Translations under genes and position numbers: made by a program
Source: Syntrophaceae bacterium UBA4810
GTDB taxonomy: Bacteria; Desulfobacterota; Syntrophia; Syntrophales; Smithellaceae
Length of the DNA stretch: 64,000 nt
Direction of reading: 5' to 3'
Assembly: GCA_002402545.1 (NCBI GenBank)
Contig: DHGA01000061.1
Coordinates: 1,239-65,238, forward strand
The notes under the pieces: generated by a model
Seen by the model: the letters and a program-made list of their open reading frames with translations, nothing else
What the model was told of the DNA's origin: nothing
Database searches by the model: none
Shown: positions 17,484-48,740 of the stretch, in pieces
Layout of the letters: every line of letters begins with the position of its first letter
How positions within the stretch are numbered: position 1 is the stretch's first letter

Positions 17484-17484
17484 A

Positions 17485-23943: not shown

Positions 23944-23955
23944 ATTTAGTCTCCC

Positions 23956-24357: not shown

Positions 24358-24546
24358 GTTATTTTCCTCCTGGCTGATAAGTTATCATATTTTTATGCCG
24401 CAAGCATAGGTTAATGCTTCGCGATATGTCAATGAATTTATATCCTTATTGCTGAATACCTGATTTAGCAGCTAATATTCAGATTTATTTACGATAAGCA
24501 GCGCAATGAGGAGATATTGAACTAAAATATTGGTGGCAATCTTTCA

Positions 24547-24575
24547 TTGACTCTCAAAACCGTGTGTCTTAAAAT
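24547..24575 (+). promoter_or_regulatory. promoter (TTGACT-17-TAAAAT), third copy of the conserved 37-bp promoter box
   Basis: TCTTTCATTGACTCTCAAAACCGTGTGTCTTAAAATC compared with 17619 TCTTTCATTGACACACAAAGCCGTCTGTCTTAATATT. Confidence 0.5.
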
Positions 24576-24626
24576 CAGCTTGTTGAAAAAGGTCCATGGA
24601 AAAATGAACGGAAAGCGTAAAAACCC

Positions 24627-25886: not shown

Positions 25887-25905
25887 AAACATTCAGGAGG
25901 CCGTC

Positions 25906-26871: not shown

Positions 26872-26918
26872 TTTTTCCCGCCGTTGTTCGCGCGGTAGAA
26901 ATATAAAGAAGGCGCAAA

Positions 26919-28271: not shown

Positions 28272-28298
28272 TAAACTTGCCCTCAAAAGGAGGTTTTT

Positions 28299-29570
28299 AT
28301 GTGCGATACATGCGGCATCGGGCCTGAATTCACGGGCTCCGGCATCAGCATTTTCGGCAAGAATTCCGACCGCGAGCCGGATGAAACACAGCTTGTGGTG
28401 TCTGTGCCGTCAAAAAATGACGGCGCGAAAGAAGAACTGCGCTGCACTTATATCAGCATTCCTCAAGTTGAGGCTACTTTCGCCATGGTGCTCTCCAAGC
28501 CTTTCTGGCTGTGGGGCGCGGAAATGGGCGTCAACGAAAAAGGCGTGGTTATCGGCAACGAAGCGCTTTTTACCAAAGTAAAACAAGAAAAATCACCGGG
28601 GCTAATCGGAATGGATTTGCTTAGGCTGGCGCTGGAAAGAGGAGGCGATGCCCGGCAAGCGGCACAAATAATAATAGATCTATTAGAAAAATACGGGCAG
28701 GCCGGAGCCTGCGGCTACCGTGATAAAAAATTCAGCTATATGAATTCCTTTATCATCATGGACCGGAAGGTTATCATCAAACTGGAGACAGCGGGCAGGG
28801 ACTACGTCATGAAGGATGCCGGCACGCATGCCGCGATTTCCAACGGCATCACCATCGCGCGGGATTGGGACTCATCGTCGCTCGCGCCGAATACAGACTT
28901 CAGCAAATTCAGCGACCCGTTGATTACCTATTTTTCTGGCAGCGCTTTCCGTAAGGGCGGAAACGAAACCGCCATCAATCAGGCAAAAGGAAAAATCGAC
29001 GCCGGAGAAGTTTTTGCGATGCTCAGGGCTCATCACGGTGACGCGCCGGGAAAGAGCTTCAATCGCGATGTCTGTATGCACGCCGCCGGCCCGCTCATCA
29101 GAAAATCACAAACCACCGGCTCAATGGTGGTGGAGCTGCACCCGGAGGATAAATTCCGGATCTTTGTAACCGGCGGCTCGGCGCCCTGCCTCACCGCCTT
29201 TAAACCGTTTCTGCCGGCAGCGCCTTTTCCTGATACCGTCATCGGCGCCGGTCATTATTCTGATGATTCATACTGGTGGAGGCATGAGGCCTACCATATC
29301 AATGCCTTTTTGCGTTATGAATCCGTCAGGGATTTGGCGCGGCAATACATAAGGGAAATCGAAGGCAAATATGTCGAGAAATTCCCTCCGCACGCGTGGC
29401 GTGAGACTGATGCCTCTTTGGTCGCCAAATCTCACAGCGCCTTTAAAGAATCGGAAGGGCAGGAAAAAATTATTCTCGGACGAATGAAAACAATGAAAAA
29501 ACAGGCGCCGCGGCCGTCCGCTTTATTCTGGAAGCACATTGCCGGGCGTTGTGGCGTGCCACTTGTATAA
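28299..29570 (+). CDS. Ntn-hydrolase, C69 dipeptidase-like
   Basis: Met-Cys N-terminus (MCDT..) and a GKNSDREPDE block. Confidence 0.5.
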   Translation: MCDTCGIGPEFTGSGISIFGKNSDREPDETQLVVSVPSKNDGAKEELRCTYISIPQVEATFAMVLSKPFWLWGAEMGVNEKGVVIGNEALFTKVKQEKSPGLIGMDLLRLALERGGDARQAAQIIIDLLEKYGQAGACGYRDKKFSYMNSFIIMDRKVIIKLETAGRDYVMKDAGTHAAISNGITIARDWDSSSLAPNTDFSKFSDPLITYFSGSAFRKGGNETAINQAKGKIDAGEVFAMLRAHHGDAPGKSFNRDVCMHAAGPLIRKSQTTGSMVVELHPEDKFRIFVTGGSAPCLTAFKPFLPAAPFPDTVIGAGHYSDDSYWWRHEAYHINAFLRYESVRDLARQYIREIEGKYVEKFPPHAWRETDASLVAKSHSAFKESEGQEKIILGRMKTMKKQAPRPSALFWKHIAGRCGVPLV

Positions 29571-29619
29571 TAGACAAAGCGGCAGAACTGTTCACTGGCT
29601 TGCGTTAACCAATTCATTA

Positions 29620-29648
29620 TTGACTTATAGAATTATCTTTTCTATATA
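29620..29648 (+). promoter_or_regulatory. promoter at the left edge of the RiPP-like cluster (TTGACT-17-TATATA)
   Basis: Consensus-like boxes 65 nt upstream of the nucleotidyltransferase start. Confidence 0.5.
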
Positions 29649-29712
29649 AGGTTGGTGACAGCCTGATATTTTTTTAACGGCCTTATTATTAATTCCCCAT
29701 CTAAGGATTTTG

Positions 29713-30906
29713 ATGCGGCAGTCCAACTCAAATATAAAAATTTTATCTCTGTTTTCTCTTTTATATTCAGGCGGCAATTTTAAAAGCAACGCGTCGGCTC
29801 TGTCCGTCATTGATTGGCCGGAAATGACCACTTTTATTATGGAAAAAGGTTTGGCTGGGCATTTCTACAGCATTCTCTATCAAAATCCAACCGCCGCCGC
29901 ACTCATTCCTGCAGATACAATGGAAAGATTGAAAACCGCCGCTCGACGCGTCGCCGCTCACAATGTTTTTTACGAAACCCAATGCGCGGCAATACTCAAA
30001 GATTTGTCCGCAGCGGGAATAGAAAGCATTTTGCTTAAAGGCTTTTCCTATATGCGGGATATTTATGGCGACACTTCTTCCCGCAGCATGAGCGATATTG
30101 ATCTGCTTGTTCGCCCGGCCGACCGGATTAGAGCGCACGAATACCTGATAGATAACGGATTTTCTCTTTGCGTAATCCCTTCTTTCCGGGGCAGCCGGGA
30201 GGATTTCCTGCGCCTGACCGATATTATCGGCGAAACGCATTACATGAAACAAACCGGCGCGCTCACCGCGAGCGTCGACCTGCACTGGAAAATGCGCGCG
30301 GAATTTCCCATGAATAATTACATGGATTTGGATAAATTTCCCTGGTGGAAAAACGCCACGACTGTAGACATCGGCGATGCCCAGGCAAGAAGACTTGTGC
30401 CGGAGATGCAGTTCATTCATCTGGCGCTGCATTTCGCCATTCGTCATCACTATTGGGGGTTGAGATGGTTTGTGGAATTATTTCTTTTTCTGAAAACGTT
30501 CGGAGAAAAGCTGGATTGGGATTTCGTTTATCAAACAACTTCATCAAGTGACTGCCGCAAACTGCTGGGAGTCTGCCTGCGCCTTGTTAAAGATTATTTA
30601 GGCGATGCGTGCCCCGCTTCTGCAGAATGGCAAAAATTTCTGCCTGTCCGTTCTCTGTTACCCGGTGAATACAGCTTTTATAAAAGCTACCTTGCGCGGG
30701 ATAAAAAATCACGGCTGGCCGAATATCTTTGCATGCCGCTCAGCCCCGCGACGATTACCGGCCGGCTGAAGATGATTTATTATTTCCTCTTTGACGCGCA
30801 GGGAGTCGTTTTCTGGCAGGGAGCAGAAACCAGAGTGCCAAAAATGTTGCATCCTTTCTATGTTTTGTATATTGTTGCCCGGCAGTTACTGCGCCGTAGA
30901 AACTGA
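29713..30906 (+). CDS. nucleotidyltransferase family protein (NTP_transf_5-like)
   Basis: GFSYMRDIYGD...SMSDIDLLV NTase motif. The size and context (next to PqqD and an HPrK-like kinase) fit the family seen in lasso and other RiPP loci. Confidence 0.65.
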   Translation: MRQSNSNIKILSLFSLLYSGGNFKSNASALSVIDWPEMTTFIMEKGLAGHFYSILYQNPTAAALIPADTMERLKTAARRVAAHNVFYETQCAAILKDLSAAGIESILLKGFSYMRDIYGDTSSRSMSDIDLLVRPADRIRAHEYLIDNGFSLCVIPSFRGSREDFLRLTDIIGETHYMKQTGALTASVDLHWKMRAEFPMNNYMDLDKFPWWKNATTVDIGDAQARRLVPEMQFIHLALHFAIRHHYWGLRWFVELFLFLKTFGEKLDWDFVYQTTSSSDCRKLLGVCLRLVKDYLGDACPASAEWQKFLPVRSLLPGEYSFYKSYLARDKKSRLAEYLCMPLSPATITGRLKMIYYFLFDAQGVVFWQGAETRVPKMLHPFYVLYIVARQLLRRRN

Positions 30907-30944
30907 TGAAACGCCAATTTGCATAAAATAACGGAGAAATGCAT

Positions 30945-31211
30945 ATGAAAAAAATCCCGAAGAAGAACCCGGATATTATCTGGAAAAATGTAAAAGGAGA
31001 GACCGTGCTTCTCAATCCCCAAAGCGGAAAGTATTACGGCCTCAACAAGGTCGGCTGCGCCTTCTGGGAAAAGGTAGACGGAAAAAAAGCAATGCCGGAG
31101 ATCGCCGACTTATTGCTCAAAGAATTCACCGTGGAAAGAGAAAGGCTTCTGGGGGACTTGGAAGATTTACTTAAAACGCTTACCGAAAACAATATTATAA
31201 CAATAGAATAA
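30945..31211 (+). CDS. PqqD-family RiPP recognition element (lasso B1-like peptide chaperone)
   Basis: About 88 aa with the ...GETVLLNPQSGKYYGLNKVGCAFWEKVDGK...EIADLL..EF.V pattern typical of PqqD. Confidence 0.8.
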   Translation: MKKIPKKNPDIIWKNVKGETVLLNPQSGKYYGLNKVGCAFWEKVDGKKAMPEIADLLLKEFTVERERLLGDLEDLLKTLTENNIITIE

Positions 31212-31221
31212 AGAGGCCGGA

Positions 31222-32214
31222 TTGCAGAAATATTCTTATATTTTTGATGCTTTTGGAAGTTCGTTTGGAGTATCGGGCAACTGGCCTGACTGCCTCAAAG
31301 ATATCAGCGCCTGGTATGCCTTGCCGCAAAGCAAAATATCGGGCAAGCCGGATTTATCTTTGCAAATCTCCGGCGCCAAAATAGAAGAAATTGACCGGCG
31401 GCTTCCCCTGCCCTCTGAGAATCATAAACTCAAAAAAGGCGTCATGCTGGCCAATGAAAATTTTGATTATACATCTTACGCGGACAACGAAAGGCAATGG
31501 ATTGATTACGCCCGTGTCGGGCGAATTATGATTGATTACGTCAATGGTTCTGCGATAGCGCTTATGTGCGGCAGCGCCATGCTCCCTACCTACCAGAAAA
31601 TTCTTTTTCCCGACTATGCTTTGGACAAACTTCTTACCTCCCGGGGAATTTTTTCGATGCATGCCTCCTGCGCTGTGGTTAACGGCAAAGGCATAGCCTT
31701 TACAGGCAATTCCGGCGCGGGTAAGTCCACGGCGGCTTTTATGCTGATGCAGAAAGGAATGCAGATACTTACCGATGAAAAATTGTATGTTTTTAAAAAA
31801 GATTGCTACCGGGCGGGGGCGGTTTCGGATATTATTAAGGTAAACGATGATTCCATGTCGAGATTTTTTGCCGGGCGGGATTCTTACAGCGAATATGACG
31901 TTATCGCCGGGGAACATTATTTAAAAATCAGCGCCGCGACAAAATCCGCCGGGCAAAATCAGGTGCCGCTCAAAGCGCTGTGCCTGCTGGAGCAGACAGG
32001 CTTTCCCCAAACGCAGATAACCTCCGTCAATCCCACCAAGCTTGTCGGCGGCCTCTTCCCCGTTACCATAACAGGGACAAGCCGCAGATATAAAGCAGCC
32101 AAGTTTGATTTTATTATGGAAATGCTGGAGAACATCGAGTGCCGTCTGGTTAAATTCGGCACTAATATGGATAGTTTTACGGAAAAAATTAAGGAACTGG
32201 CAGATACATTATAG
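31222..32214 (+). CDS. HPr-kinase-related (HprK-like) P-loop kinase
   Basis: GIAFTGNSGAGKST P-loop in HPrK C-domain context. TTG start after AGAGG. Confidence 0.65.
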   Translation: MQKYSYIFDAFGSSFGVSGNWPDCLKDISAWYALPQSKISGKPDLSLQISGAKIEEIDRRLPLPSENHKLKKGVMLANENFDYTSYADNERQWIDYARVGRIMIDYVNGSAIALMCGSAMLPTYQKILFPDYALDKLLTSRGIFSMHASCAVVNGKGIAFTGNSGAGKSTAAFMLMQKGMQILTDEKLYVFKKDCYRAGAVSDIIKVNDDSMSRFFAGRDSYSEYDVIAGEHYLKISAATKSAGQNQVPLKALCLLEQTGFPQTQITSVNPTKLVGGLFPVTITGTSRRYKAAKFDFIMEMLENIECRLVKFGTNMDSFTEKIKELADTL

Positions 32215-32226
32215 TTATCTGATAAT

Positions 32227-32286
32227 AAAAAAGGCGTTCAATGACCGGATTTAACCCGATTCACTGAGCACCCGATAAAAACAAAA
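32227..32286 (-). terminator. conserved hairpin terminator module, copy 1 (after precursor A1)
   Basis: GGCGTTCAATGA...TCACTGAGCACC flanked by A/T runs. The loop CCGGATTTAACCC is conserved with copies 2 and 3. Confidence 0.55.
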
Positions 32287-32295
32287 TCTGATATT

Positions 32296-32382
32296 TTAAG
32301 GGTCTGGTTGTTTGCTCGAAGTGGTTATATCCGAAAGATCTTCATAAACGACAAGTTCCGGTTTTTCGTAGTCTTGCTTCAT
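32296..32382 (-). CDS. RiPP precursor peptide A1: MKQDYEKPELVVYEDLSDITTSSKQPDP
   Basis: My own codon-by-codon translation. AAGGGGGA RBS. The leader is shared with six paralogs. Confidence 0.8.
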   Translation of the reverse strand: MKQDYEKPELVVYEDLSDITTSSKQPDP

Positions 32383-32642
32383 AGTTGTTCCCCCTTTGAT
32401 TGAATATTAAATTGTTTTTATGCATACGACAAAAATCCATCACAAGCAAGTTTGTTTTTTTTTGCAATGATTCTAGTGAAACAATTCTTCAGAAGCAATA
32501 TATTATAAGCTCAGGTATTTGTGCCTTTTTATGACTTAATAATACTGCTCCATTGGCCAATTTCCCTTGACATATAAGACAGTCTTATCCTACGATTTTG
32601 CAACCAAATATAATATATTATCACAATTAGAGGTGGCTTTGC

Positions 32643-34190
32643 ATGAAGGAATTGGACCTTGCCTGGTACATGATACGACTGCACACGCGGCTGCGGCGTT
32701 TTGATCATAAGCGAAATAGTCAAGATAAGATAAATATTTTTCACCATGCCAGGAGGGTCACGAGTAAGTTGAGTTCCGTCCTGATTCGCTTTTCTGTAGC
32801 CGAGGCAAAAACCCCGTGGTTTACTGATGACGAAGCTAAAGCGATTCATCAAGAGAGAGAAAAACTATTAGAGAAGCTTTCCGGTCGGACAAACCTCAGT
32901 GCCAACGGGACTAAACTCCATCTCGGTAAGCTGTCTCGGGGTTGCACCATTTGCATGGATGGATACTGGGGTTGTAACTATATCAACGGGCGGTGCCACA
33001 GAAACTGCTTTTACTGCATGCGAGATCATTCAATGCAAACGGAACCAAATTCCAAAAGTGATGGTTTTGATTTTGGCACTTCCGAAGAACACATAGAATT
33101 CCTCAAAACTTTTCAGATCAGGGGTGTCGGATTTTCCGGGGGAGAACCCTTGTTGGTTCTCGATCGGCTCTTGGAGCACATTGTTGCGATACGTAAGGAA
33201 CTCGGTTCCACAATTTATCTCTGGATGTATACCAATGGCGATTTGGTAAACCGCGAGACGCTTAGTGCGCTCAGAGATGCCGGGCTAAACGAGATCCGTT
33301 TCGATTTGAGCGCCCGAGGTTATGACTTGTCACCTCTTGTGCTCGCCAAGGAATATATCCCCACCGTAGCTGTTGAAATACCGGCCATCCCTGAGGATTT
33401 TCTCTTGGTGAAAAAGTTGCTGGTCGATATGCAGGCTGTTGGCGTCAATCACCTCAATCTTCATCAATTAATGGCTGGGCAGCGTAATTGGAAGGCTTTG
33501 TGCCGTCGGCACTATCACTTTTCGTTTCAAAGTACGCCTGCTGTTCATGAGTCAGAGCTTTGCGCCTTGCGTTTGATTCTGTACGCTTGTGAGCAAAAAC
33601 TGAACCTGCCAATCAATTACTGTTCCGTAGCCTACAAATTTCGTTTTCAGGGACGAGCATTCAGAATGCGGCGCGCCTTGGTTCTTCGGGAAGGGTTTCA
33701 GGAAATAACGGAAGCGGGCTATATCCGATCACTGTGTATATCTGATTCCGCCGATAAGATTGAAGCGCTAGCTAGGCGGTTGAAGGGTGATCATGTGGAA
33801 CCCATATTGTGGAAAGAGGAATGCGATCATGGTGAAATCTCCTTGCACAGCAACCTGATGTCCTATGTTGATTGGTCTTCTGCGACGTTGGCTATCAAAT
33901 ACTATCAGGCTGGTGTTGCGCTCAAGAATAAATCCGCTCGATTCGAACCTGGAAATCTGAAAAGGGATAGGCGTACCGTCAAGACGGTTACCGGCTTGGG
34001 TTGTTCAGCCTTCGATTGTTGGCATAGGCTTTATGTTCAGAAGGAAGCCGCAACAGATGTTTTCAGCCCCACCCATCTTAAACACCTCGGTGTTTCGGAA
34101 GAGAAAAATCGGTTTAAGAATATAATCGGTCAACTGCTTTCTGTGGCCACATACGAACAATTGGAGGCTGGCTTGCCTGATGTGACTTGA
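32643..34190 (+). CDS. radical SAM protein (515 aa, large C-terminal extension)
   Basis: GRCHRNCFYC CX3CX2C motif preceded by an extra Cys cluster (CTICMDGYWGC). GFSGGEPLL glycine-rich SAM motif. Confidence 0.75.
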   Translation: MKELDLAWYMIRLHTRLRRFDHKRNSQDKINIFHHARRVTSKLSSVLIRFSVAEAKTPWFTDDEAKAIHQEREKLLEKLSGRTNLSANGTKLHLGKLSRGCTICMDGYWGCNYINGRCHRNCFYCMRDHSMQTEPNSKSDGFDFGTSEEHIEFLKTFQIRGVGFSGGEPLLVLDRLLEHIVAIRKELGSTIYLWMYTNGDLVNRETLSALRDAGLNEIRFDLSARGYDLSPLVLAKEYIPTVAVEIPAIPEDFLLVKKLLVDMQAVGVNHLNLHQLMAGQRNWKALCRRHYHFSFQSTPAVHESELCALRLILYACEQKLNLPINYCSVAYKFRFQGRAFRMRRALVLREGFQEITEAGYIRSLCISDSADKIEALARRLKGDHVEPILWKEECDHGEISLHSNLMSYVDWSSATLAIKYYQAGVALKNKSARFEPGNLKRDRRTVKTVTGLGCSAFDCWHRLYVQKEAATDVFSPTHLKHLGVSEEKNRFKNIIGQLLSVATYEQLEAGLPDVT

Positions 34191-34320
34191 TTAATTAACA
34201 AGCTGCCGACACTGGTTACCCAAAATAGTTGTGCCGTCCAGGGACTTTAATAGCGGATAAGATTGTTTTTATTATTGAGATGCTGGCAAATGCTGTCAGA
34301 AACATTATAAATGCTTGATA

Positions 34321-34376
34321 AACAAAGGCGCTCAATACCGGGATTTAACCCTATTCATTGATCGCCAGATAAAAAA
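34321..34376 (-). terminator. conserved hairpin terminator module, copy 2 (after precursor A2)
   Basis: GGCGCTCAAT-loop(ACCGGGATTTAACCC..)-ATTGATCGCC, with a T-run on the minus strand. Confidence 0.6.
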
Positions 34377-34387
34377 GATACTTACTG

Positions 34388-34477
34388 TTATACAGGACTG
34401 GTACTCAAGCCACCTGTCGTTACATCCGAAAGGTCTTCGTAAACAATCAGTGCGGGTGTTTCATAATCTTGTTTCAA
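34388..34477 (-). CDS. RiPP precursor peptide A2 (TTG start): MKQDYETPALIVYEDLSDVTTGGLSTSPV
   Basis: In-frame TAA two codons upstream of the TTG, and GGAGGG 6 nt upstream. Confidence 0.7.
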   Translation of the reverse strand: MKQDYETPALIVYEDLSDVTTGGLSTSPV

Positions 34478-34538
34478 AATTTACCCTCCTCAGATAATTA
34501 AAATACCTTTTAAGGTTTAAGGTTAAAAATATCCTGTT

Positions 34539-34634
34539 TTAATCTACTACTGTTTTGCTTATTGGCCCGCCTGTCGTGACGTCAGAAAGATCTTCATAGA
34601 CAACAAGTTCGGGTTTTTCGTATTCTTTTTTCAT
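34539..34634 (-). CDS. RiPP precursor peptide A3: MKKEYEKPELVVYEDLSDVTTGGPISKTVVD
   Basis: GGGAGG RBS. My own translation. Confidence 0.8.
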   Translation of the reverse strand: MKKEYEKPELVVYEDLSDVTTGGPISKTVVD

Positions 34635-34760
34635 GGTTACGCCTCCCTGGATTTCTTACTATAATGAATTGCTGAATAAATACAACAAAAACAAACAGTA
34701 GTCAATTTATTTTAGGGTTATAAAAACATAAAAATGCAAAATGGTGGAGTAGACAATATA

Positions 34761-34789
34761 TTGACACAAAAGTTCAATGTTCTTATACT
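34761..34789 (+). promoter_or_regulatory. promoter (TTGACA-17-TATACT) upstream of the formyltransferase gene
   Basis: Consensus boxes 52 nt upstream of the ATG at 34841. Confidence 0.55.
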
Positions 34790-34840
34790 TTCTGACCGCA
34801 TACTCGGCGGTAAACAAAAGAGGTTAAGGGGCATTTTTTT

Positions 34841-35779
34841 ATGAGAGTATTATTTATCGGCCAAAACGGGTCTTTCAGCACATATCCTCTGCGCAAAATC
34901 GCGGCGGAGCACGAAATCGTGGGCATTGTGGAATCCGTACCGCAAAAGTACACGCCAATGAAAGCAAAGCTGCTAAAATTTTTAACCCGCTACAATAAAA
35001 AGCAGACGCTCAGATCATTGGCCCGACAAATGTCCGTGCCCTACTTTTTGCTGCAGAGAGGCAAAAAAAATGGCCTCGCTTCTTTCGTTAAAACACTTAA
35101 CCCGGATATTATCTGCGTGGCTTCTATGTCGGAGCTTTTGCCCAAAGAAGTTTTTTCCATGCCTCCATTCGGGACAATAAATTTCCACCCCGCGTTGCTT
35201 CCCCAATACCGCGGCCCTCGGTCGTTTTTCTGGCAGTATTATTTTATGGAACCGGAAACAGGCGTAACCATTCATTACATAGACGAAGGCGAAGATACGG
35301 GTGATATCATCAGGCAAAAAAGCATTCCCATATTTTTGGGCATGAAAAGCGGGGAACTAGTAAATGAAATAACCATTATTGGAGCGGCACTCATGGCAGA
35401 GGCGCTTGACGATATAAGCAAAGGGACTGTCCAGAGCGTACCGCAAAAGCATCTGCCCTGCCCTTTTCGAGCAAGGCGCGAGAAAAAGGGCGAAGAGCTT
35501 ATTGACTGGAACTGGCCGATTGAACGCATCTGGCATTTTCTACGCGGAACGGCGTATCAGGATAAATCGTTCAAATACAGGTTGCCCGGCTCTTCCTGGA
35601 TTGTGAGGGATTTCAAAAAAGGCGAAACTGACGGCACAGCGGGGATGCTGAAAATCAGCTTACAGGGTTTCTACATGACCCACAGGGAAGGAAAAATCTT
35701 TGTTACCCTGAAATGGTCGCTAATAGATTTCGCCCGCGATTTATATCACTTTGCTTTAAAATTAACGGGACAAGATTGA
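34841..35779 (+). CDS. formyltransferase (Fmt/PurN-fold, with Fmt-like C-terminal domain)
   Basis: NFHPALLPQYRG (catalytic His block) and IHYIDEGEDTGDII (Asp block). Confidence 0.75.
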   Translation: MRVLFIGQNGSFSTYPLRKIAAEHEIVGIVESVPQKYTPMKAKLLKFLTRYNKKQTLRSLARQMSVPYFLLQRGKKNGLASFVKTLNPDIICVASMSELLPKEVFSMPPFGTINFHPALLPQYRGPRSFFWQYYFMEPETGVTIHYIDEGEDTGDIIRQKSIPIFLGMKSGELVNEITIIGAALMAEALDDISKGTVQSVPQKHLPCPFRARREKKGEELIDWNWPIERIWHFLRGTAYQDKSFKYRLPGSSWIVRDFKKGETDGTAGMLKISLQGFYMTHREGKIFVTLKWSLIDFARDLYHFALKLTGQD

Positions 35780-35803
35780 ACAAAAAAAGATTAGTGCTCG
35801 AAA

Positions 35804-35860
35804 TAAAAAAGGCGCTCAATGCCGGGATTTAACCCCGTATATATTGAGCGCCCGATAAAA
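35804..35860 (-). terminator. conserved hairpin terminator module, copy 3 (after precursor A4)
   Basis: Perfect 10-bp stem GGCGCTCAAT/ATTGAGCGCC, 22-nt loop, and T6 on the minus strand. Confidence 0.7.
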
Positions 35861-35872
35861 AAGATGCTTACT

Positions 35873-35959
35873 CTATCTTACGTCGCTAGGAACTCCAGTT
35901 GTTATCTCTGAAAGATCTTCATACACAACAAGTTCGGGTTTTTCATATTCTTCTTTCAT
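35873..35959 (-). CDS. RiPP precursor peptide A4: MKEEYEKPELVVYEDLSEITTGVPSDVR
   Basis: AAAGGA RBS. My own translation. Confidence 0.8.
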   Translation of the reverse strand: MKEEYEKPELVVYEDLSEITTGVPSDVR

Positions 35960-35991
35960 GTTTTTTTCCTTTCTGTGTGTGCTTTTCTACG

Positions 35992-36087
35992 CTAAAATGC
36001 TGTGCTTGGTTCTTGTGCGAATCCCTGCGTTATAACCAAAAGGTCTTCGTAAACTACAAGTTCAGGTTTCTCGTATTCTTTTTTCAT
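35992..36087 (-). CDS. RiPP precursor peptide A5: MKKEYEKPELVVYEDLLVITQGFAQEPSTAF
   Basis: GGGAGG RBS. The 5' UTR is nearly identical to that of A3. Confidence 0.75.
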   Translation of the reverse strand: MKKEYEKPELVVYEDLLVITQGFAQEPSTAF

Positions 36088-36177
36088 GTTTACGCCTCCC
36101 TGGATTTCTTACAATTGCGCAGTTATCTTCGCAAGAGCTTCATCAATAACCCTTTTCGGCGGGAAGCACTCGATCAA

Positions 36178-36261
36178 TTAAGCAATAGTCGTGCTTCCTG
36201 TTGTTATCTCTGAAAGATCTTCATAAACAATCAGTTCAGGTTTTTCATAGTCTTGTTTCAT
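36178..36261 (-). CDS. RiPP precursor peptide A6: MKQDYEKPELIVYEDLSEITTGSTTIA
   Basis: My own translation. Weak AAGAGA RBS. Confidence 0.75.
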   Translation of the reverse strand: MKQDYEKPELIVYEDLSEITTGSTTIA

Positions 36262-36317
36262 CGTTTTTCTCTTTTTATTAGCGGCTTGATTTTACGACGT
36301 TATCAACTACGGCGCTA

Positions 36318-36410
36318 TCACATGGTGTCGCCCGATACGAATATTCCCATTGTCACATCAGAAAGGTCTTCATAAACAATCAGTGCGGGTTTTTCATATT
36401 CTTGTTTCAT
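36318..36410 (-). CDS. RiPP precursor peptide A7: MKQEYEKPALIVYEDLSDVTMGIFVSGDTM
   Basis: AGGAGG RBS. My own translation. Confidence 0.8.
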   Translation of the reverse strand: MKQEYEKPALIVYEDLSDVTMGIFVSGDTM

Positions 36411-36498
36411 GGTTTTTCCTCCTGTTATGGAATCAGTCATGAAATGTTTACAATAAAGATTCACGTTGGTCAACTTTTTTTGTTATCGAATTATCACG

Positions 36499-36527
36499 TT
36501 GACACACAAGTGGAACTTTCTTATATT
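36499..36527 (+). promoter_or_regulatory. promoter (TTGACA-17-TATATT) upstream of the DUF362 gene
   Basis: Consensus boxes. This implies the annotated ORF start at 36466 is upstream of the transcription start. Confidence 0.55.
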
Positions 36528-36579
36528 TCAACTCCAAATAAGTTACCTGTTGTCAAAAAAGTCTGCCCGGGAGGATAAG

Positions 36580-37506
36580 TTGCTATTCCGCCGTTTATTG
36601 CGCTATTTGAACCGGCCTGCCGTCTTGCGCCGTATAGTGGTGAGCGGCCAGGCAAAGCCGCGCATCGCAAAAAACCATCCGGCCAAAGACCAGGTTTTTG
36701 TCTATCTATACAATAACGAAGATGCAGGCCTGAAAGATTTGTGTAGCTCTATTGCGCCAGCTTGGGAAAAAACCGAGCGGATTTTAATAAAGATTAACCT
36801 CAATACGGCGGATGCTTATCCTGCCTCGACCGACCCGGAATTTCTTGTCGCCCTGCTTGACGCGTTTCGCGATAGAGGTTTTAAAAATTTGCTGGTGGGT
36901 GATTGTTCTTCCATGGGCGCGCTACCCACGCGCAAAGTGGCGTATCAGGCAGGTCTTACCAACGTGCTGCGCGGCCGGGCACGGCTTATTTACTTTGATA
37001 ACGAACCGTGGGTGCAAGTTAGCCTCAACGGAAAATATCTTTCTTCAGTTGTTGTCCCCAAAGAAGTATTTGAGGCAGACCGAATAATTCATCTGGCAAA
37101 TATGAAATCACACGCGCTGGCGAATTTCAGCTTCGGCATGAAATTGGGCGTGGGATACATGCATCCCTTGGAGCGCTGTGACTTGCATGATGAATTCTTA
37201 CAGGAAAAAATCGCGGAACTGGCTCTCGCTATTCAGCCGGATCTGACGATAATTGACGGGCGACAGGCGTTTGTTTCCGGCGGGCCGGTTAAAGGCCGGG
37301 TGGAGAAGGCAAACGTTTTGCTTTGGGGAGAAAATCCCCTGGCGGTTGATGTGGAAACATATCGCAGATTGTATGCGTTAAAGAAAAAATTTGCATGTTT
37401 GGAAGGATTCACGCAAGATCCTTTTGCCATGCGCCAGTTGAAACACGCGCGCCAGATTGGTGTCGGAAACAAAGATTGGCAGGAATACAACATTGTGGAA
37501 ATATAA
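36580..37506 (+). CDS. DUF362 domain protein
   Basis: ILIKINLNTA...STDPEFLVALLDAFRDRG...LVGDCSS pattern of DUF362. TTG at 36580 after GGGAGGA. Confidence 0.65.
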   Translation: MLFRRLLRYLNRPAVLRRIVVSGQAKPRIAKNHPAKDQVFVYLYNNEDAGLKDLCSSIAPAWEKTERILIKINLNTADAYPASTDPEFLVALLDAFRDRGFKNLLVGDCSSMGALPTRKVAYQAGLTNVLRGRARLIYFDNEPWVQVSLNGKYLSSVVVPKEVFEADRIIHLANMKSHALANFSFGMKLGVGYMHPLERCDLHDEFLQEKIAELALAIQPDLTIIDGRQAFVSGGPVKGRVEKANVLLWGENPLAVDVETYRRLYALKKKFACLEGFTQDPFAMRQLKHARQIGVGNKDWQEYNIVEI

Positions 37507-37921
37507 GGGCTATGAACTGCCGCAAGATTTACCTCTGATTATCGGAGCGCTTCTGCGGCTGCTTTATTTTGAGTTGATACTTCACCGAAGGCCGCTACCG
37601 GATATTTTAGCGGAAATTAGCGGGATGCCTTCCGTTTTATCTGCGCCTGCGGCGGAAGTAGCCGTTACCTTGGATAAATTATGGCGCGCCTGCGGCTTCT
37701 GGATGGCAAGGGTGCTTAAAAATCCCCGTCCCTGTCTGCGCCGCTCGCTGGTTTTGTATCGCTGGTGTAAAAAGCATGGCGTGGAGAGCAAAGTGGTTGT
37801 TGGCGTGGATAAAGACGGGGACATCCTCAAGGGACATGCCTGGCTTTACGTGCACGGGCAGGTGTACAGAGAAGACCCGGAGTTACTGGCCAGAGATTAT
37901 ACCATAATGCTGGAAGGCTAA
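37457..37921 (+). CDS. lasso-peptide B2-type leader peptidase (transglutaminase-core Cys protease)
   Basis: PCLRRSLVLYRW....G......VGV......KGHAWLYVHGQVY carries the Cys and His blocks of McjB-C/B2 proteins. The start is uncertain (TTG at 37457 or 37493). Confidence 0.75.
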   Translation: MVSETKIGRNTTLWKYKGYELPQDLPLIIGALLRLLYFELILHRRPLPDILAEISGMPSVLSAPAAEVAVTLDKLWRACGFWMARVLKNPRPCLRRSLVLYRWCKKHGVESKVVVGVDKDGDILKGHAWLYVHGQVYREDPELLARDYTIMLEG

Positions 37922-37943
37922 TCGCAAGGTAAAAGGTTTTTTT

Positions 37944-39356
37944 ATGCGCTTTTTATTTATCACGCACGGCATAGAACCAAACTTGTTTCAGGGCCCGCAC
38001 TGGCTGCCTTTGGGCTTTGCCTATATCGGCGCGTTGCTGAAACAGCATAGGCATGCTGTACAAGTTTTTGATCGTTACGCTGCGATAGATCGTTTAGGGC
38101 AAGACGCGGAAAAAATCGATCAGGCGATGTTGAATGCGATAACAATTTTTGCGCCGGATGTTGTCGGCCTGTCCACTGTTTCACCAATGATTCATGATGC
38201 AGTTCATTGCGCCAAAATAATCCGGGATGTTTTCAATGGGACAATGCTGGCCGGCGGGCACCACGCGACTGCCCTGCCTCGCCTCACTATGGAAAAGATC
38301 GCCGAGCTGGACGGCGTGGGAATTGGGGAAGGAGAAGAATCCCTGCTGGCTTTAGCCCAAGGCAAAAAACCAGATGAAATCAAAGGACTTTATTGGCGAA
38401 AGAATTCCGGCAAAGAAAGTTTCGGCCGTGTGGAGCAACTTGATTTGCTGCCTTTTCCCGATTTTTCATTGTTTGACACGGATTTTTACACACGACGTAC
38501 TTCGTCCATAATTCGCGGTTTTCATCTTTCGACACTTTCCATGCTTACATCACGAGGCTGTTCTCAGCGCTGTTCTTTCTGTACCGAATCACTGACCTAT
38601 GGCGGCGGCGTGCGTTTCCATAGCATAGATTACATTACGGAACTGGTTAAACGCGCCCTCAAACAGTATCCGCATGTTGAAGGCATCTATTTTCACGACA
38701 ACGACTTTATGGTTGACCCGGCCCGCGTGGAAAATATTTGTCGCCGCTTTATCGAGACGGGACTTGCCAAGCGCTTTGCCTGGGCGATTCAGGCGCGCGC
38801 AGACAGGTTAAAGCCTGCCCTGCTGCGGCTGATGCGCAAGGCGGGATGCATCAAGATGGAAATCGGCGTGGAAGCTGCCTTGCAAAAAAACCTGGATTCG
38901 GTGCGAAAAGGCACCACGGTAAACGTCAACGAAAAAGCGCTAAGGCTATGCCGTGATGCCGGAATCAGCGTGCACGCGTATATTCTGACAAAAACACAAA
39001 ACGAGTTACTCGCAGATTTGGATTTTACGCTCAATTGGCTCAAGAAAAATCGGCCGGATACATTCAGCTTGCATCCTTTATTGCGTCACCCGGGGTCTGT
39101 ATTATACAAGGAAAAAGGAAATAGGTTTTTTGAATCTCACGACTGGACAAGGGAAAACGTTCTTCGCTTTTATAATGAAGATGTTTTTTCTAAGATTAGC
39201 CCACAGGAAAGAAAAAAATGGGCGCTATCACGTTACAATCCTTTTTACAAAAGGCATCACCGCATAATCCGCTACAAGGTGAACCCTCTTCGCAAATGGC
39301 CGCAAATGCTGTATGAGGCGCTGGCGCGCAGGCTGAAAAAATTGTTTGCCAAATAA
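37944..39356 (+). CDS. B12-binding-domain radical SAM protein (class B-like)
   Basis: N-terminal Rossmann-like B12-binding region. SRGCSQRCSFCTE CX3CX2C motif. Confidence 0.75.
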   Translation: MRFLFITHGIEPNLFQGPHWLPLGFAYIGALLKQHRHAVQVFDRYAAIDRLGQDAEKIDQAMLNAITIFAPDVVGLSTVSPMIHDAVHCAKIIRDVFNGTMLAGGHHATALPRLTMEKIAELDGVGIGEGEESLLALAQGKKPDEIKGLYWRKNSGKESFGRVEQLDLLPFPDFSLFDTDFYTRRTSSIIRGFHLSTLSMLTSRGCSQRCSFCTESLTYGGGVRFHSIDYITELVKRALKQYPHVEGIYFHDNDFMVDPARVENICRRFIETGLAKRFAWAIQARADRLKPALLRLMRKAGCIKMEIGVEAALQKNLDSVRKGTTVNVNEKALRLCRDAGISVHAYILTKTQNELLADLDFTLNWLKKNRPDTFSLHPLLRHPGSVLYKEKGNRFFESHDWTRENVLRFYNEDVFSKISPQERKKWALSRYNPFYKRHHRIIRYKVNPLRKWPQMLYEALARRLKKLFAK

Positions 39357-39384
39357 TTTTATTTGCGCTCTAACTAGTTTACTT

Positions 39385-40305
39385 ATGGCCGCAAAAAAGA
39401 AAAATGACTTTTATCTTGCCGACTCAATAAACAATCTGATTGCCAGAGAAATACAGTCGGGCGATTTCACGTGCGACCTTCCATCGCACAAAGGAGACGC
39501 CGAGTGCCGCAATTTGTTTCTCAATATCTACGATGAAGCAATGATCCGCCGGAAGTTCGAGGAGATCGGTTTCGCCGCGCACCTGAAAAATAGAGGTTTT
39601 ACAAAGCTGCAAATAGAAATTGACCGGGGCATGAATTCAGTTTCGAGCCTGAGATTATATAACGGGCCTATTTCGCCGGATAACCGCCTGTTGGACACGC
39701 GTTTCAGCGAAACTATTTTTACTCCTTTCAGGGAGTTTTGTGAACTTGCCGGCGATAAAAAAGACCCCTGCAAGTTTCAGATGATTGTAATCGAGTGGCT
39801 CGAGGCGCTTGACCCAAAAGCCCACTTCACTGCTGAAAAACCCCAGCTTCCCGGCCAGAAAAAACCCGGACTGGGGGCGCTTGTCTATATCAAGAAATTT
39901 TTGGGTGTCGTGGGAAAAGATGTTTCCCGCGACGGGTTTCTGAAAATCGCCGACCATATTCACACAGCTCTTATGTATTCAGATATCTTCATGTTCGTAA
40001 ACCCAGCCCGCCAGGGATATCTCAGCGCGCTGCGGCGTGATATGGAAAAGTACAGTTTAAACGATATCGCCTGGGGTTTTGTGACTGAAACAATCTGTGA
40101 CCGCGAAACCGGCGCGCCGGAAAAATATATTCCTTCCGAGCAGGTTTTGCCGCTTTCCGACAGATTAATGGAGCATTTTACTTCACGCAAATACGCGGAC
40201 GATGTGCGCGCAGTTTATGAAAACAAGGGGTTTCGGTTCGACATTGACCGCATGCTTTTGCTGAAAAAAGAATGGCTTGGCAAAAACAGGCCGGAAGACG
40301 CTTAA
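39385..40305 (+). CDS. hypothetical protein (last gene in the same orientation as the cluster)
   Basis: 306-aa ORF. Family not recognised. Confidence 0.5.
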   Translation: MAAKKKNDFYLADSINNLIAREIQSGDFTCDLPSHKGDAECRNLFLNIYDEAMIRRKFEEIGFAAHLKNRGFTKLQIEIDRGMNSVSSLRLYNGPISPDNRLLDTRFSETIFTPFREFCELAGDKKDPCKFQMIVIEWLEALDPKAHFTAEKPQLPGQKKPGLGALVYIKKFLGVVGKDVSRDGFLKIADHIHTALMYSDIFMFVNPARQGYLSALRRDMEKYSLNDIAWGFVTETICDRETGAPEKYIPSEQVLPLSDRLMEHFTSRKYADDVRAVYENKGFRFDIDRMLLLKKEWLGKNRPEDA

Positions 40306-40364
40306 ACAGCCTGCTATTCAGCAAAAAACTTTTGTCGCCTATCACGCCACAAGAACTCAGGTAA

Positions 40365-41024
40365 TCATTTCGACCGCACAGAGAGCAGTATTCCAAAACT
40401 TAACAGAAAAAGACCTGTAAAGTAGACGGGAATGGTAAACAAAGGCGAGGGGTGTCCGTTAAAAACAAACTTGGCCAATGCCAGCAAAGCATCGGAAAGC
40501 ATGAAAATAAATGCCCCGATAGCGGCGAGTGGACGAACATCAGCCACGATGGCAAGCATTGTCATAAGGGTAATAACAACAAGGTATAACATAACCGGCA
40601 CAAGCAGCGAACCCAGTTTGGGAACAAGCACAAAAGCCATGGCCAGCGAAAAAAGCAACACGGGCATTATCCATATACGGCGGGGACTTTTTGGAACACG
40701 CCGCATCCAAAATAAAATAAGAAAGCCCGCATGACCCAAAAGAAACGCGGCAAGACCGGGAACAAACAGGCGAACCCGATCTATGTCGAGAATCACGTCT
40801 CCGGCGCCACAAAACAGCGCGCCGGTTAACATCGCGATTTTCTGCGGAAGCGCCAACTGGCCGGTGACAAGTATTGCGACAGCCAGAATCAGCGCCGGAA
40901 TCACCTTGATAACAAAGCTGGCCGTAAAGTCGGGTATAAATATTTTGACCAGCATGAAACTTACGGCGGCCGCCACATAGACCACCATGAAGGGTATATA
41001 GGAAAATCCTTTTTCGCTTTTCAT
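40365..41024 (-). CDS. YhhN/lysoplasmalogenase-family membrane protein
   Basis: Multi-TM with GDVILD and FMLSDALLA motifs. ATG at 41024 is preferred because the TTG at 41060 abuts the upstream terminator. Confidence 0.65.
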   Translation of the reverse strand: MKSEKGFSYIPFMVVYVAAAVSFMLVKIFIPDFTASFVIKVIPALILAVAILVTGQLALPQKIAMLTGALFCGAGDVILDIDRVRLFVPGLAAFLLGHAGFLILFWMRRVPKSPRRIWIMPVLLFSLAMAFVLVPKLGSLLVPVMLYLVVITLMTMLAIVADVRPLAAIGAFIFMLSDALLALAKFVFNGHPSPLFTIPVYFTGLFLLSFGILLSVRSK

Positions 41025-41061
41025 GCGTTCATTAATAATTGGATATTCAGCGAAATGCAAG

Positions 41062-41094
41062 AAAAAAAAGCCCCGCCTCTGGAAGAGGCGGGGC
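41062..41094 (-). terminator. intrinsic terminator after the acylase gene
   Basis: GCCCCGCCTCT-tcc-AGAGGCGGGGC plus T8 on the minus strand. Confidence 0.75.
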
Positions 41095-41121
41095 TCAAAA
41101 CAACACCATGTTTACGACGTA

Positions 41122-43695
41122 TTACGGATTAAGGTACAGTTTATACTTGGCAACCGCCTCTACTTTTTCACGGCTCCACAGCATGGGCTGGTATTCGACT
41201 TTAGCCCAGGGTACCATTTGATCCTCGTACCACTTGCTCCCCGGGTGGCCGCTGACGCCGGTCGAATTTATTTTCACGCTCTGGTCAAAATCGCCCAAGT
41301 CAACAATCATGCGCATGGAAGGTATCAGCCCTACACTGAAATTGCCCTTGCTCGCGTACCAGATATTGTTGTTGACCGTTTCCGTGGAGCCGGATGTGGG
41401 CACAGGCCCCCTATTGACCAGCGCTTCAAGCGGTTTGACACGGCTGGCACCCAGCGGATTGCTGACGAACGTGGCGGTATGAAGCTTGCCCCAATTCCAT
41501 TTATTGCGGTCATTGCCCTGAGCTAACTTTGCCGCCGCGTAAGCTTCGGCAAAAGATTTTATCAGTGTCTCATCGCGTGTTTCTTTCCTGTCCGGTGTTG
41601 TGGGATCATCCCACCAAGGGTCGTTGGGATTCTTCAAAAGCAGGGTAATTGCCCACAATTCCTTATCAATGCCATCGGCCTTTCCTATGTCTCCTATTTT
41701 ATTTTGAAAAGTGTTCTGCATTAATTTCATTATAAAATGATTGAACAACACGGCGTGCGGGCTGTCTTCTCCACAGATAGCATCCCACTTTATAAGCCAG
41801 TCGCGGGCATCGGTCAGTTCCGCGTCTTCAAACTTGAGTTTGGCCAGCGCGGGCATAATCTCCTTAGCCGGTATGCTCAAATTATCGCCTTGAATCGCCT
41901 GATAAGTGGCCACGCTGTGCGGCGCGAGTTGCTTCATTAAATCATATGTGCGCTGCGAACGGTAGCCGTAAACCCACTTGTTATATTTGGAACCGAAGTG
42001 AGCATTTACGTTTGGCCCCAGCTTGCTGTTGAGCATGGCAAAATAACGGGGAGGCGCTATTTCCTGATTCGAGGCCACGATGTATTTACGCGCCGGGTTA
42101 TAGAGACGTGGCATCAGATCATAAGGGACATACCCCTTCCATGCGTATTTGTCTGTCCAGCCGGGCACGGGCACCTGGCCGGTGTGGTTTTGAGCACGAA
42201 CGGGAATTTTCCCCGGCATCTGCACGCCGATGTTACCCTTCCGGTCGGCATAAACCAGGTTTTGTGAAGGGGTATCCCAATATTTAAGCGCCGCGATGAA
42301 GTCATTCCAGTTTCGGGCTCGGTTAAGCTTTAGGATGGCCAGCGTAATAGTGCTCGGCTCCAAGCCGGTCCAGCGCAGAGCCAGGGGGTCTTTGTTGTTA
42401 AATCCTGCCAGCTCGCCCGTCTTGGGATCAGCTCTGTTTTCATTAATGATTGGACCCAGGTGCGTGATTCTGACCTTGATGTTGATGGAAGGTTTTCCGT
42501 CGCCGAATCTGATCGTTTCTTCACGAATGGTCATATCACGCCATTTCCCGTTCCACTCATATTGCAGCGGGTTGTCCGGATTGACTTTGATTTGATAAAG
42601 ATCGTTCACATCAGGATAGACATTCGAGTTTCCCCAGGCGATGTCGTTATTATGACCCGCGACCACACCGGGAGAAGGGGCAAAGGCAAAGCCGGTTACG
42701 TCAAAAGGCCGGCCGGTGCCGTCGTCCGGGCAATGCAGCGCGACTTCATACCAGATAGAGGGCTGCTGAATGCCCAGGTGAGGATCGTTAGCCAGAAGCG
42801 GCTTGCCTTGCTTTGTCATCGAGCCGGTCGCCACCCAGGAATTAGTGCCAATCCCTTCGGCCTGACCCATGATGTGGGAAAGATCACCGGCGGGCTGTTC
42901 ATAGCTTTGCGTAACCTCGGCAATTATTTTTTCCCGCGGCTCAGGCGACAAAGCTAAAGAGGCGGGATACATTGCCTTAATATCCTCATCGAGTAAAGTG
43001 GTGGGTTTAAGCCCGAGCGGCCAAGCCGGTACCAGCCACTGTTCCGCCATTTTCGCGCCTAGCTTGACATAGAGCTTGGCGCGGATGATTTCCAAGTCGC
43101 GTGAAAGGCCCAGATCCCAGGCCATCAGCTTGGAGAAAACCAGCGTATCAAGCGGAGACCATGGTTCCACCTTGAACTTGACTCCGGTAAGGCCAAGAAT
43201 CGAATAGTTGACCGAAAGCTGCTGAGGGCTGCGGCCTGAAATATAAGCGTTAACGCCAGCAGCGAAAGCATCCAGGGCAGTGCGGTCTTGCGCGCTAAAA
43301 CTGTTATATTCCTTTTCGGCTACTTTATACAGACCCAGTGACCTCAGGTAGATGTCGGAATTTACCAGCGCGGCTTTCCTGCCGGTGAGTTCCTCAATCC
43401 GCCCACCGCATGTTTTGCGGAAGAATTCCATCTGCCACCAGCGGTCCTGAGCCTGAACGTAACCCTGGGCGAAGAAAAGGTCCTGCATGTTGTTCGCGTA
43501 GATATGTGGCTTGCCGCCGGAATCGCGTAAAATCTCCACGCGCTCCTTAAGCCCCGCCACCTTCAGTTCACCTTTAACCTGTGGCTGAGGGCGTATTTTG
43601 TAGTAAGCACAACCGCCTAGCATATTCACTAACATCAATGAGAATAAAGTAATTACTGCACCTTTAAAAATCGTGCCAAATTTTTCCCTTTCCAT
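41122..43695 (-). CDS. penicillin/AHL acylase family (S45 Ntn-hydrolase)
   Basis: 857 aa, signal/TM N-terminus, and GTNSWVATG...LLANDPHL nucleophile block. Confidence 0.85.
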   Translation of the reverse strand: MEREKFGTIFKGAVITLFSLMLVNMLGGCAYYKIRPQPQVKGELKVAGLKERVEILRDSGGKPHIYANNMQDLFFAQGYVQAQDRWWQMEFFRKTCGGRIEELTGRKAALVNSDIYLRSLGLYKVAEKEYNSFSAQDRTALDAFAAGVNAYISGRSPQQLSVNYSILGLTGVKFKVEPWSPLDTLVFSKLMAWDLGLSRDLEIIRAKLYVKLGAKMAEQWLVPAWPLGLKPTTLLDEDIKAMYPASLALSPEPREKIIAEVTQSYEQPAGDLSHIMGQAEGIGTNSWVATGSMTKQGKPLLANDPHLGIQQPSIWYEVALHCPDDGTGRPFDVTGFAFAPSPGVVAGHNNDIAWGNSNVYPDVNDLYQIKVNPDNPLQYEWNGKWRDMTIREETIRFGDGKPSINIKVRITHLGPIINENRADPKTGELAGFNNKDPLALRWTGLEPSTITLAILKLNRARNWNDFIAALKYWDTPSQNLVYADRKGNIGVQMPGKIPVRAQNHTGQVPVPGWTDKYAWKGYVPYDLMPRLYNPARKYIVASNQEIAPPRYFAMLNSKLGPNVNAHFGSKYNKWVYGYRSQRTYDLMKQLAPHSVATYQAIQGDNLSIPAKEIMPALAKLKFEDAELTDARDWLIKWDAICGEDSPHAVLFNHFIMKLMQNTFQNKIGDIGKADGIDKELWAITLLLKNPNDPWWDDPTTPDRKETRDETLIKSFAEAYAAAKLAQGNDRNKWNWGKLHTATFVSNPLGASRVKPLEALVNRGPVPTSGSTETVNNNIWYASKGNFSVGLIPSMRMIVDLGDFDQSVKINSTGVSGHPGSKWYEDQMVPWAKVEYQPMLWSREKVEAVAKYKLYLNP

Positions 43696-43927
43696 ACTTA
43701 CATCCTTTCCGCGCCCGGATAAAAAACTACAGACGCATGAAACTTTATCATCTCTTAATTATCAAAAGTCAATACCTAGCTTTTTAAATCATTTGTTATG
43801 AAGACTGCGGGTCATGATAAAAAAGATGTTGCTTTCAGCGTAAAAAACTTTAATAATCACATCTACAGGGATCTTTCCGCTCAAAGAATTATTCAGACTT
43901 GTTGGTATATCACAAACTGGTAAAACC

Positions 43928-43955
43928 TTGACGTAAAGACACTTATCAATATACA
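43928..43955 (+). promoter_or_regulatory. promoter (TTGACG-16-TATACA)
   Basis: Upstream of the XRE-cupin regulator gene. Confidence 0.4.
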
Positions 43956-43969
43956 TACGGTGAATCATT

Positions 43970-44518: not shown

Positions 44519-44529
44519 CGGCGGCATCT

Positions 44530-45669: not shown

Positions 45670-45705
45670 ATTTTTCAGAAAAATCAAGAACGGCAGCAGG
45701 CGAAC

Positions 45706-46894: not shown

Positions 46895-46906
46895 AAATCA
46901 GGCTGG

Positions 46907-48734: not shown

Positions 48735-48740
48735 GAAAAC

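Follow-up and report, generated by a model that had tools for sequence, protein, structure and literature searches.

Within a 64,000-nucleotide stretch of Syntrophaceae bacterium UBA4810 (contig DHGA01000061.1; hereafter, the window), a gene at positions 34841-35779 of the + strand encodes a 312-aa formyltransferase located among the precursor genes of a cluster for peptides that are made by ribosomes and modified post-translationally (RiPPs). We consider it somewhat probable that this protein is an optional, cluster-dedicated tailoring enzyme, which transfers a formyl group to a primary amine in very short core peptides of 5-12 aa. Whereas the original prediction proposed N-terminal capping of the core released by the lasso-type leader peptidase B2, comparison of related clusters suggests that the epsilon-amine of Lys in a recurrent Ser-Lys motif (SSKQPDP and GGPISKTVVD in the window) is the best-supported acceptor across the family.

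The formyltransferase open reading frame (ORF) begins with ATG, and a Shine-Dalgarno-like AAGGGG (34826-34831, + strand) can be read in the sequence 9 nt before it. The product matched the Pfam domain Formyl_trans_N (PF00551) over residues 3-188, at 89.8 bits against a gathering cut-off of 26.1, and the two motifs formerly quoted as catalytic, NFHPALLPQYRG and IHYIDEGEDTGDII, were both found in its translation. Asn114, His116, and Asp152 did not vary among the 63 sequences of a family alignment, nor in any RiPP-linked orthologue that was examined; L120, P121, G125, W131, D148, and G154 were also invariant in that alignment, as was the HPxLLPxYRG block, equivalent to the H-x-x-LLP-x-x-RG folate-site block. 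HMMER paired the blocks of the protein with those reading INVHGSxLPRWRG and DTGD in methionyl-tRNA formyltransferases (Fmt) of Vibrio and Bacillus.

The AlphaFold2 model (mean pLDDT 90.7, pTM 0.88) presented a C-terminal beta-barrel plus a helix. In Foldseek, Fmt, the formyltransferase domain of ArnA, and the hydrolase domain of FDH each superposed on it over about 300 columns with a TM of ~0.70; since all three matched equally well, Foldseek was rejected as a discriminator among them. The Fmt-like C-terminal domain proposed earlier is thus backed by fold and not by sequence, because the model superposes on the Fmt/ArnA/FDH barrel, yet PF02911 (Formyl_trans_C) gave no match at E<=0.01 in the Pfam scan. 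Judged by its sequence and modelled structure, the protein is a stand-alone, two-domain member of the Formyl_trans_N family of N10-formyl-tetrahydrofolate-dependent transferases (Formyl_trans_N domain followed by an Fmt/ArnA-like beta-barrel) with intact catalytic residues. Upstream of the gene, a sigma-70-like promoter match (TTGACA-17-TATACT; 34761-34789, + strand) was located where a consensus promoter had been claimed, and 11 of 12 positions agree. Since promoter-like sites occur regionally at chance level (10 seen versus 9.2 expected from shuffles), this site is a good match and not proof of a promoter.

The formyltransferase is dedicated to its cluster and is not a housekeeping Fmt, because it reached half of the cut-off of the Fmt equivalog TIGR00460 (102.9 bits versus 201.5), its gene is carried by an accessory island, and its orthologues with a readable context occur in RiPP clusters. 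Proteins with 50-100% identity were found only in metagenome-assembled genomes (MAGs) and metagenomes of Syntrophaceae and Smithella. Moreover, every orthologue of at least 50% identity with a readable context (related loci L011-16, L019-22, and L114-121, whose contexts were read from metagenome contigs and MAGs) adjoins cluster-type genes, namely some of those for NTP_transf_5, PqqD, HprK-like, and B2 proteins and for leader-bearing precursors, with short contigs presenting part of the set. In all eight orthologue pairs tested, dN/dS of the formyltransferase was 0.12-0.24.

The phylogeny that the original prediction had suggested separates these proteins further: in a neighbor-joining (NJ) tree of 82 family members, inferred without bootstrap values, the RiPP-linked orthologues (50-86% identity) formed one clade, which nests within a large family of 34-48% identity found mostly in polysaccharide clusters. 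In this context, we regard it as evenly balanced whether the clade was recruited from polysaccharide-type formyltransferases as the first dedicated RiPP formyltransferase, acting on Lys and/or the new N-terminus of 5-12-residue peptides from cyclase-less, lasso-derived machinery.

Precursor genes were confirmed on both sides of the formyltransferase gene, at 34539-34634 and 35873-35959 of the - strand. Altogether, seven precursor genes are present, all on the - strand, and all enzyme genes of the cluster are on the + strand. The precursors share the leader M-K-x-[DE]-Y-E-K-P-E-L-x-V-Y-E-D-L-x-x-x-T-x, and Thr at -2 together with the YxxPxL motif was present in seven of seven and in all related precursors found. 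With cleavage taken after Thr(-2)-x, the predicted cores are SSKQPDP (precursor 1, 32296-32382, leader ending in DITT), GGLSTSPV (precursor 2, 34388-34477, with a TTG start), GGPISKTVVD (precursor 3, 34539-34634), GVPSDVR (precursor 4, 35873-35959), GFAQEPSTAF (precursor 5, 35992-36087, leader ending in ITQ), GSTTIA (precursor 6, 36178-36261), and GIFVSGDTM (precursor 7, 36318-36410, leader ending in VTM). The earlier count of Gly1 in six of seven peptides was correct, the remaining core beginning with Ser. Core length was 6-10 aa in the window and 5-12 aa in relatives, a conserved acidic residue at positions 7-9 was absent, and these cores are too short for a lasso, with its 7-9-residue ring plus tail. 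Precursor genes 4-7 are read towards the 3' end of the formyltransferase gene, where overlapping antisense transcription is possible, and the layout of precursors antisense to enzymes recurs in every related locus.

In sister clusters, where precursors were recovered with a leader hidden Markov model (HMM), the N-terminus of one core is matched by a different enzyme. A glutaminyl cyclase (Glu_cyclase_2, 242.6 bits) was identified in L011, L014, L119, L120, L021, L114, and L117, and each of these seven clusters encodes exactly one Gln1 core: QQPSKIMG (L011), QFPSKMG (L014), QPSKLMG (L119), and QPSKVMG (L120), plus QLSKGSG, QSMSD, and QLSKGPIDVA in L021, L114, and L117. The cyclase genes lie at 8300-9070 (L011), 7662-8432 (L014), 5229-5999 (L119), 5603-6373 (L120), 8539-9309 (L117), 654-1310 (L114), and, in L121, at 802-1572. 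Clusters free of the cyclase (the window, L115, L106, and L112) had no Gln1 among 12 cores. The cyclase therefore accompanied every Gln1 core and occurred nowhere else (7/7 versus 0/4 clusters, in lineages that are not independent), and in multi-precursor clusters the Gln1 precursor sits towards the cyclase gene. This co-variation confirms the predicted cleavage site and shows that an enzyme of the cluster family caps the N-terminus once it is freed; the pattern would imply pyroglutamate capping of the B2-released core, a reaction by a cluster cyclase for which we found no description in the literature searched. The sister-cluster cyclase looks cytoplasmic.

Regarding the acceptor of the formyl group, N-terminal capping as originally proposed is supported in part: with the B2 peptidase and the Thr(-2) leaders, release of a Gly1 or Ser1 amine is plausible, and sister clusters do cap an N-terminus. 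Nevertheless, the alpha-amine cannot, on these gene contents, be the universal acceptor, because the four minimal clusters L011, L014, L119, and L120 keep the formyltransferase alongside the cyclase with a Gln1 core as the sole linked core. These diverged clusters are 55-86% identical to each other, the catalytic residues of their formyltransferases are intact, and dN/dS was 0.15-0.24 among L011, L119, and L120 (dS 0.30-0.62, unsaturated) and 0.14-0.22 for L014 (dS 1.3-2.2, compared only with the multi-precursor L117 and L121), values consistent with purifying selection on the enzyme in minimal clusters. If the cyclase makes pyroglutamate, the only amine remaining there is that of Lys in the conserved P-S-K.

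An S-K core was present in all ten formyltransferase-positive clusters seen with precursors, and in neither of the two that lack the enzyme (L106 and L112). These two constitute the enzyme-free sample with readable precursors; L102-L105, which possess NTP_transf_5, PqqD, HprK-like, and B2 genes and no formyltransferase, yielded no precursors with the leader HMM and were left out. As acceptor of the formyl group, Lys of the S-K motif is no less likely than the alpha-amine; the data are matched by its epsilon-amine, or by a non-peptide amine, no worse than by the alpha-amine. Formylation of Lys only is a tentative proposal, and that of Lys plus the alpha-amine is rather unlikely. In the window, L117, L021, L121, and L114, non-Gln cores, mostly Gly1 and many of them Lys-free, directly follow the formyltransferase gene, and alpha-amine formylation of Gly1/Ser1 cores is possible as an additional activity in such multi-precursor clusters, although we doubt that the alpha-amine is formylated at all.

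Several observations weigh against our reading. The S-K correlation was noticed post hoc and rests on two enzyme-free clusters with three cores; Lys is absent from five of the seven window cores; and further precursors, unlinked to the minimal clusters, might be encoded elsewhere in the genomes concerned. Furthermore, outside the clade the nearest proteins (34-48% identity) adjoin DegT aminotransferases and DUF7033/deacetylase-like proteins, and because these nearest relatives sit in polysaccharide clusters, sugar amines are suggested as the ancestral substrate. Likewise, no sequence feature (pI, charge, insertion loop) splits the RiPP clade from its polysaccharide relatives: pI, net charge, the 33-56 insertion, and the charge of the C-terminal domain were tried as clade markers and rejected, clade and relatives being all similarly basic.

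These relatives raise the alternative that the enzyme formylates a non-peptide amine, for example an amino sugar or another amine-bearing group put on a conserved Ser by the kinase and the NTP_transf_5 protein. The 34-48% relatives occur in O-antigen-type clusters; typically encoded beside them are a DUF7033 protein that matches polysaccharide deacetylase weakly, a DegT aminotransferase, enzymes similar to WbpB/WbpD, and a flippase. An acceptor of this kind would be independent of core sequence and would fit both Gln-only and Gly-rich clusters, and there is a precedent in PsmK and PsmN, which modify a lasso peptide with phosphate and hexose (PMC6993621). However, the island holds no amino-sugar, aminotransferase, dehydratase, or deacetylase genes with which a sugar amine could be supplied or unmasked, and none of the RiPP clusters has the DUF7033 partner of the polysaccharide relatives; this weakens the explanation, a serious rival that we nevertheless find improbable. 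The DUF7033 pairing itself is near-universal among polysaccharide relatives (L017 6217-8566 and most of L024-L091), and because the two genes nearly always adjoin, they suggest an uncharacterised sugar module of deacetylation followed by formylation. In L017, a FemAB-like GNAT is also adjacent.

A strict version of the original proposal, in which only the B2-freed N-terminus of Gly1/Ser1 cores is formylated and the glutaminyl cyclase serves Gln1, is quite improbable. It agrees with the six Gly1 cores among which the formyltransferase gene is embedded in the window, with a co-variation of cyclase and Gln1 that denotes a free, enzymatically capped N-terminus, and with the position of the formyltransferase beside non-Gln precursors in two-enzyme multi-precursor clusters; the F domain of the nonribosomal peptide synthetase (NRPS) LgrA, a sequence match, offers an earlier case of this fold formylating an alpha-amine. 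On the other hand, this version does not account for the minimal clusters, where the enzyme is retained next to the cyclase and a single linked Gln1 core at the dN/dS values given above, nor for the Gly1 cores of L106 and L112, which have no formyltransferase.

It is very unlikely that no formyl group is transferred to the product at all, with the protein acting as a formyl-tetrahydrofolate hydrolase (FDH N-terminal-like), a HypX-like enzyme generating formyl-CoA/CO, or a scaffold: its fold resembles HypX and the hydrolase domain of FDH about as closely as it does Fmt/ArnA, but the partner domains (aldehyde dehydrogenase, enoyl-CoA hydratase) are missing, and peptide tailoring better accounts for a linkage to precursors and B2 that is conserved. 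Finally, a housekeeping or paralogous methionyl-tRNA formyltransferase located here by chance is scarcely credible, even though Fmt proteins head the sequence matches in the PDB (3q0i, 81 bits) and some databases name relatives "methionyl-tRNA formyltransferase", given the TIGR00460 score, the lack of a PF02911 match, orthologues confined to RiPP clusters, a gene inside an island missing from the syntenic relative, and no def found nearby among the scanned ORFs.

In the tailoring role that we favor for the formyltransferase, the remaining cluster genes would supply the other steps. A PqqD-type RiPP recognition element (RRE) similar to lasso B1 (30945-31211, + strand; PqqD 63.5 bits) and the lasso-type B2 leader peptidase (37493-37921, + strand; Transglut_core3 52.6 bits, NF033537 47.6 bits versus a cut-off of 33) would recognise the YEKPEL...T-x leader and cleave after Thr(-2)-x. 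An HprK/ScmC-like kinase (31222-32214, + strand, P-loop GNSGAGKST) and a PsmN-like NTP_transf_5 nucleotidyltransferase (29713-30906, + strand; profile match, PMC6993621) may decorate a Ser, and two radical SAM enzymes identified by profile matches, one of 515 aa (32643-34190, + strand) and one B12-binding of 470 aa (37944-39356, + strand), could add further changes. The formyltransferase would then neutralise a remaining amine, while Gln1 cores of sister clusters would be capped by the glutaminyl cyclase. We infer N10-formyl-tetrahydrofolate as the formyl donor, a peptide as its acceptor, and this order of steps.

An Asn-synthetase-type lasso cyclase, which the original prediction had described as missing, was indeed found neither among the island's cluster genes nor among the scanned window ORFs of at least 400 aa (those of 300-400 aa outside the cluster were partly scanned), and the same scan revealed no fmt or def; no lasso cyclase was called in related loci either. 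The cluster also encodes a DUF362 protein (36580-37506, + strand), of 308 aa with the start called in public contigs; a longer TTG ORF (36466-37506) probably starts too early, and a second 11/12 promoter match, TTGACA-17-TATATT (36499-36527), lies inside this longest DUF362 ORF. The DUF362 and B2 genes overlap by 14 nt. The window island has no transporter, and in some window-type clusters an ABC exporter is encoded on the precursor strand beside extra precursors (L110 1491-3305, L099 1514-3277, and L115 142-1956, all -). A second, distant NTP_transf_5 gene (~24% identity) was observed in L102 (10100-11720), L104 (6150-7131), L105 (13076-14033), and L106 (14414-15401), with a second PqqD in L102; after it comes a conserved small ORF, MPV[IMT][GT]VIFY[SI]K[AG]YESPRICFF..., a candidate for a further peptide system. 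Viral contigs scanned with the kinase alignment gave no finding.

Compared with known systems, the formyltransferase shares with Fmt (TIGR00460; PDB 3q0i, 4iqf, 1fmt/2fmt) a Rossmann-like domain with Asn-His-Asp and, in its model, a C-terminal beta-barrel, and Fmt proteins are its best PDB sequence matches (E ~1e-21), superposing over the full length. It differs from them in reaching only half of the equivalog cut-off, in a C-terminal domain unseen by PF02911, in an identity of ~22-24% by structural alignment, and in a location within an accessory RiPP island and not with def. Sugar N-formyltransferases (ArnA N-terminal domain, WbkC, QdtF, and WlaRD) have the same fold and catalytic triad, and the DUF7033-paired polysaccharide-cluster family, among which the RiPP clade nests, is closest by sequence; in contrast to both, RiPP-type loci lack amino-sugar genes (aminotransferase, dehydratase, deacetylase, flippase), which surround most of the 34-48% relatives, and a DUF7033/deacetylase partner, and their enzymes constitute a clade of their own. 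The F domain of LgrA (linear gramicidin synthetase), a remote sequence match, is a Formyl_trans_N core that acts on the alpha-amine of a peptide building block; however, it is fused to an NRPS and uses carrier-protein-bound Val, whereas the window enzyme is stand-alone with presumed ribosomal-peptide substrates. PvdF and CchA are Fmt-like, stand-alone N5-hydroxyornithine formyltransferases of siderophore pathways, which formylate a side-chain nitrogen. Likened to our enzyme by description only, they set a precedent for an acceptor of the Lys type, with the difference that their substrate is a free hydroxylated amino acid.

The surrounding machinery resembles paeninodin/pseudomycoidin-type lasso clusters in PqqD/B1, B2, the HprK-like kinase, and NTP_transf_5, as well as in the YxxPxL leader with Thr at -2, but departs from them in lacking a cyclase, in its 5-12 aa cores, in several opposite-strand precursors, and in the extra formyltransferase, DUF362, and radical SAM genes (or, in sister clusters, the glutaminyl cyclase). 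In pseudomycoidin, phosphate and hexose are attached to the lasso peptide by PsmK and PsmN (PMC6993621). Thus, the enzyme superfamily is known and the machinery is lasso-derived, and it is the pairing of this enzyme with a RiPP cluster that is undescribed in the literature searched. Full-text searches retrieved no dedicated RiPP or lasso formyltransferase, no RiPP glutaminyl cyclase with PqqD, and no account of this cluster family or of its combination of Pfam domains.

To our knowledge, and in the literature searched, formyl groups on ribosomal peptides are known only as leftovers of the initiator fMet. Leaderless bacteriocins are N-formylated ribosomal peptides, as is microcin C. In the latter, a short ribosomal peptide, the N-formyl group matters for biosynthesis or stability (PMC12250964, PMC8183687); unlike the system proposed here, that formyl belongs to the retained initiator fMet. 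No dedicated formyltransferase is known to act there after leader removal, and the literature searched yielded none. If our reading is true, formyl addition after leader removal would be a new RiPP tailoring reaction and a new handle for genome mining. The cluster family appears to have put the lasso machinery for recognising and cutting leaders to another use, the release of very short linear cores with no cyclase involved, alongside two alternative amine-blocking enzymes, the formyltransferase and the glutaminyl cyclase; together they would mark out a new RiPP family in syntrophic Smithella/Syntrophaceae, whose mini-peptides are amine-capped and phospho-decorated. The co-variation of the cyclase with Gln1 supplies a testable prediction of the cleavage site. 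The hosts are uncultured or hard-to-grow syntrophs of methanogenic consortia and, speculatively, the peptides might be interspecies signals.

The whole cluster is contained in a 9.8-kb accessory island (approximately 29571-39384), as established from a syntenic Smithellaceae genome (L122-L124) in which the two flanking genes are only 13 nt apart. The flanks on both sides of the island were 84% identical to this genome at the nucleotide level, window positions 22711-29570 and 39694-49963 aligning to L122, and GC content was 45.2% in the island versus 50.3% in the flanks. At the island borders, mobility genes were not observed. A 423-aa gene (28299-29570) and a 306-aa gene (39385-40305) were considered as cluster members and rejected, since they adjoin each other in the syntenic genome with no cluster between them. 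The 423-aa protein, with Met-Cys at its start, matches AAT/Ntn-hydrolase weakly, and an 857-aa penicillin-amidase homologue (41122-43695) also flanks the island; both genes are kept in the island-free genome and are probably unrelated to the cluster. A 359-aa gene upstream of L011-type clusters is related to neither the 423-aa nor the 306-aa flanking gene of the window. Further indels relative to the syntenic genome were observed at window positions 16558-17870 and 18892-22711, one of which includes the gene of a 570-aa AMP-binding enzyme (19900-21612).

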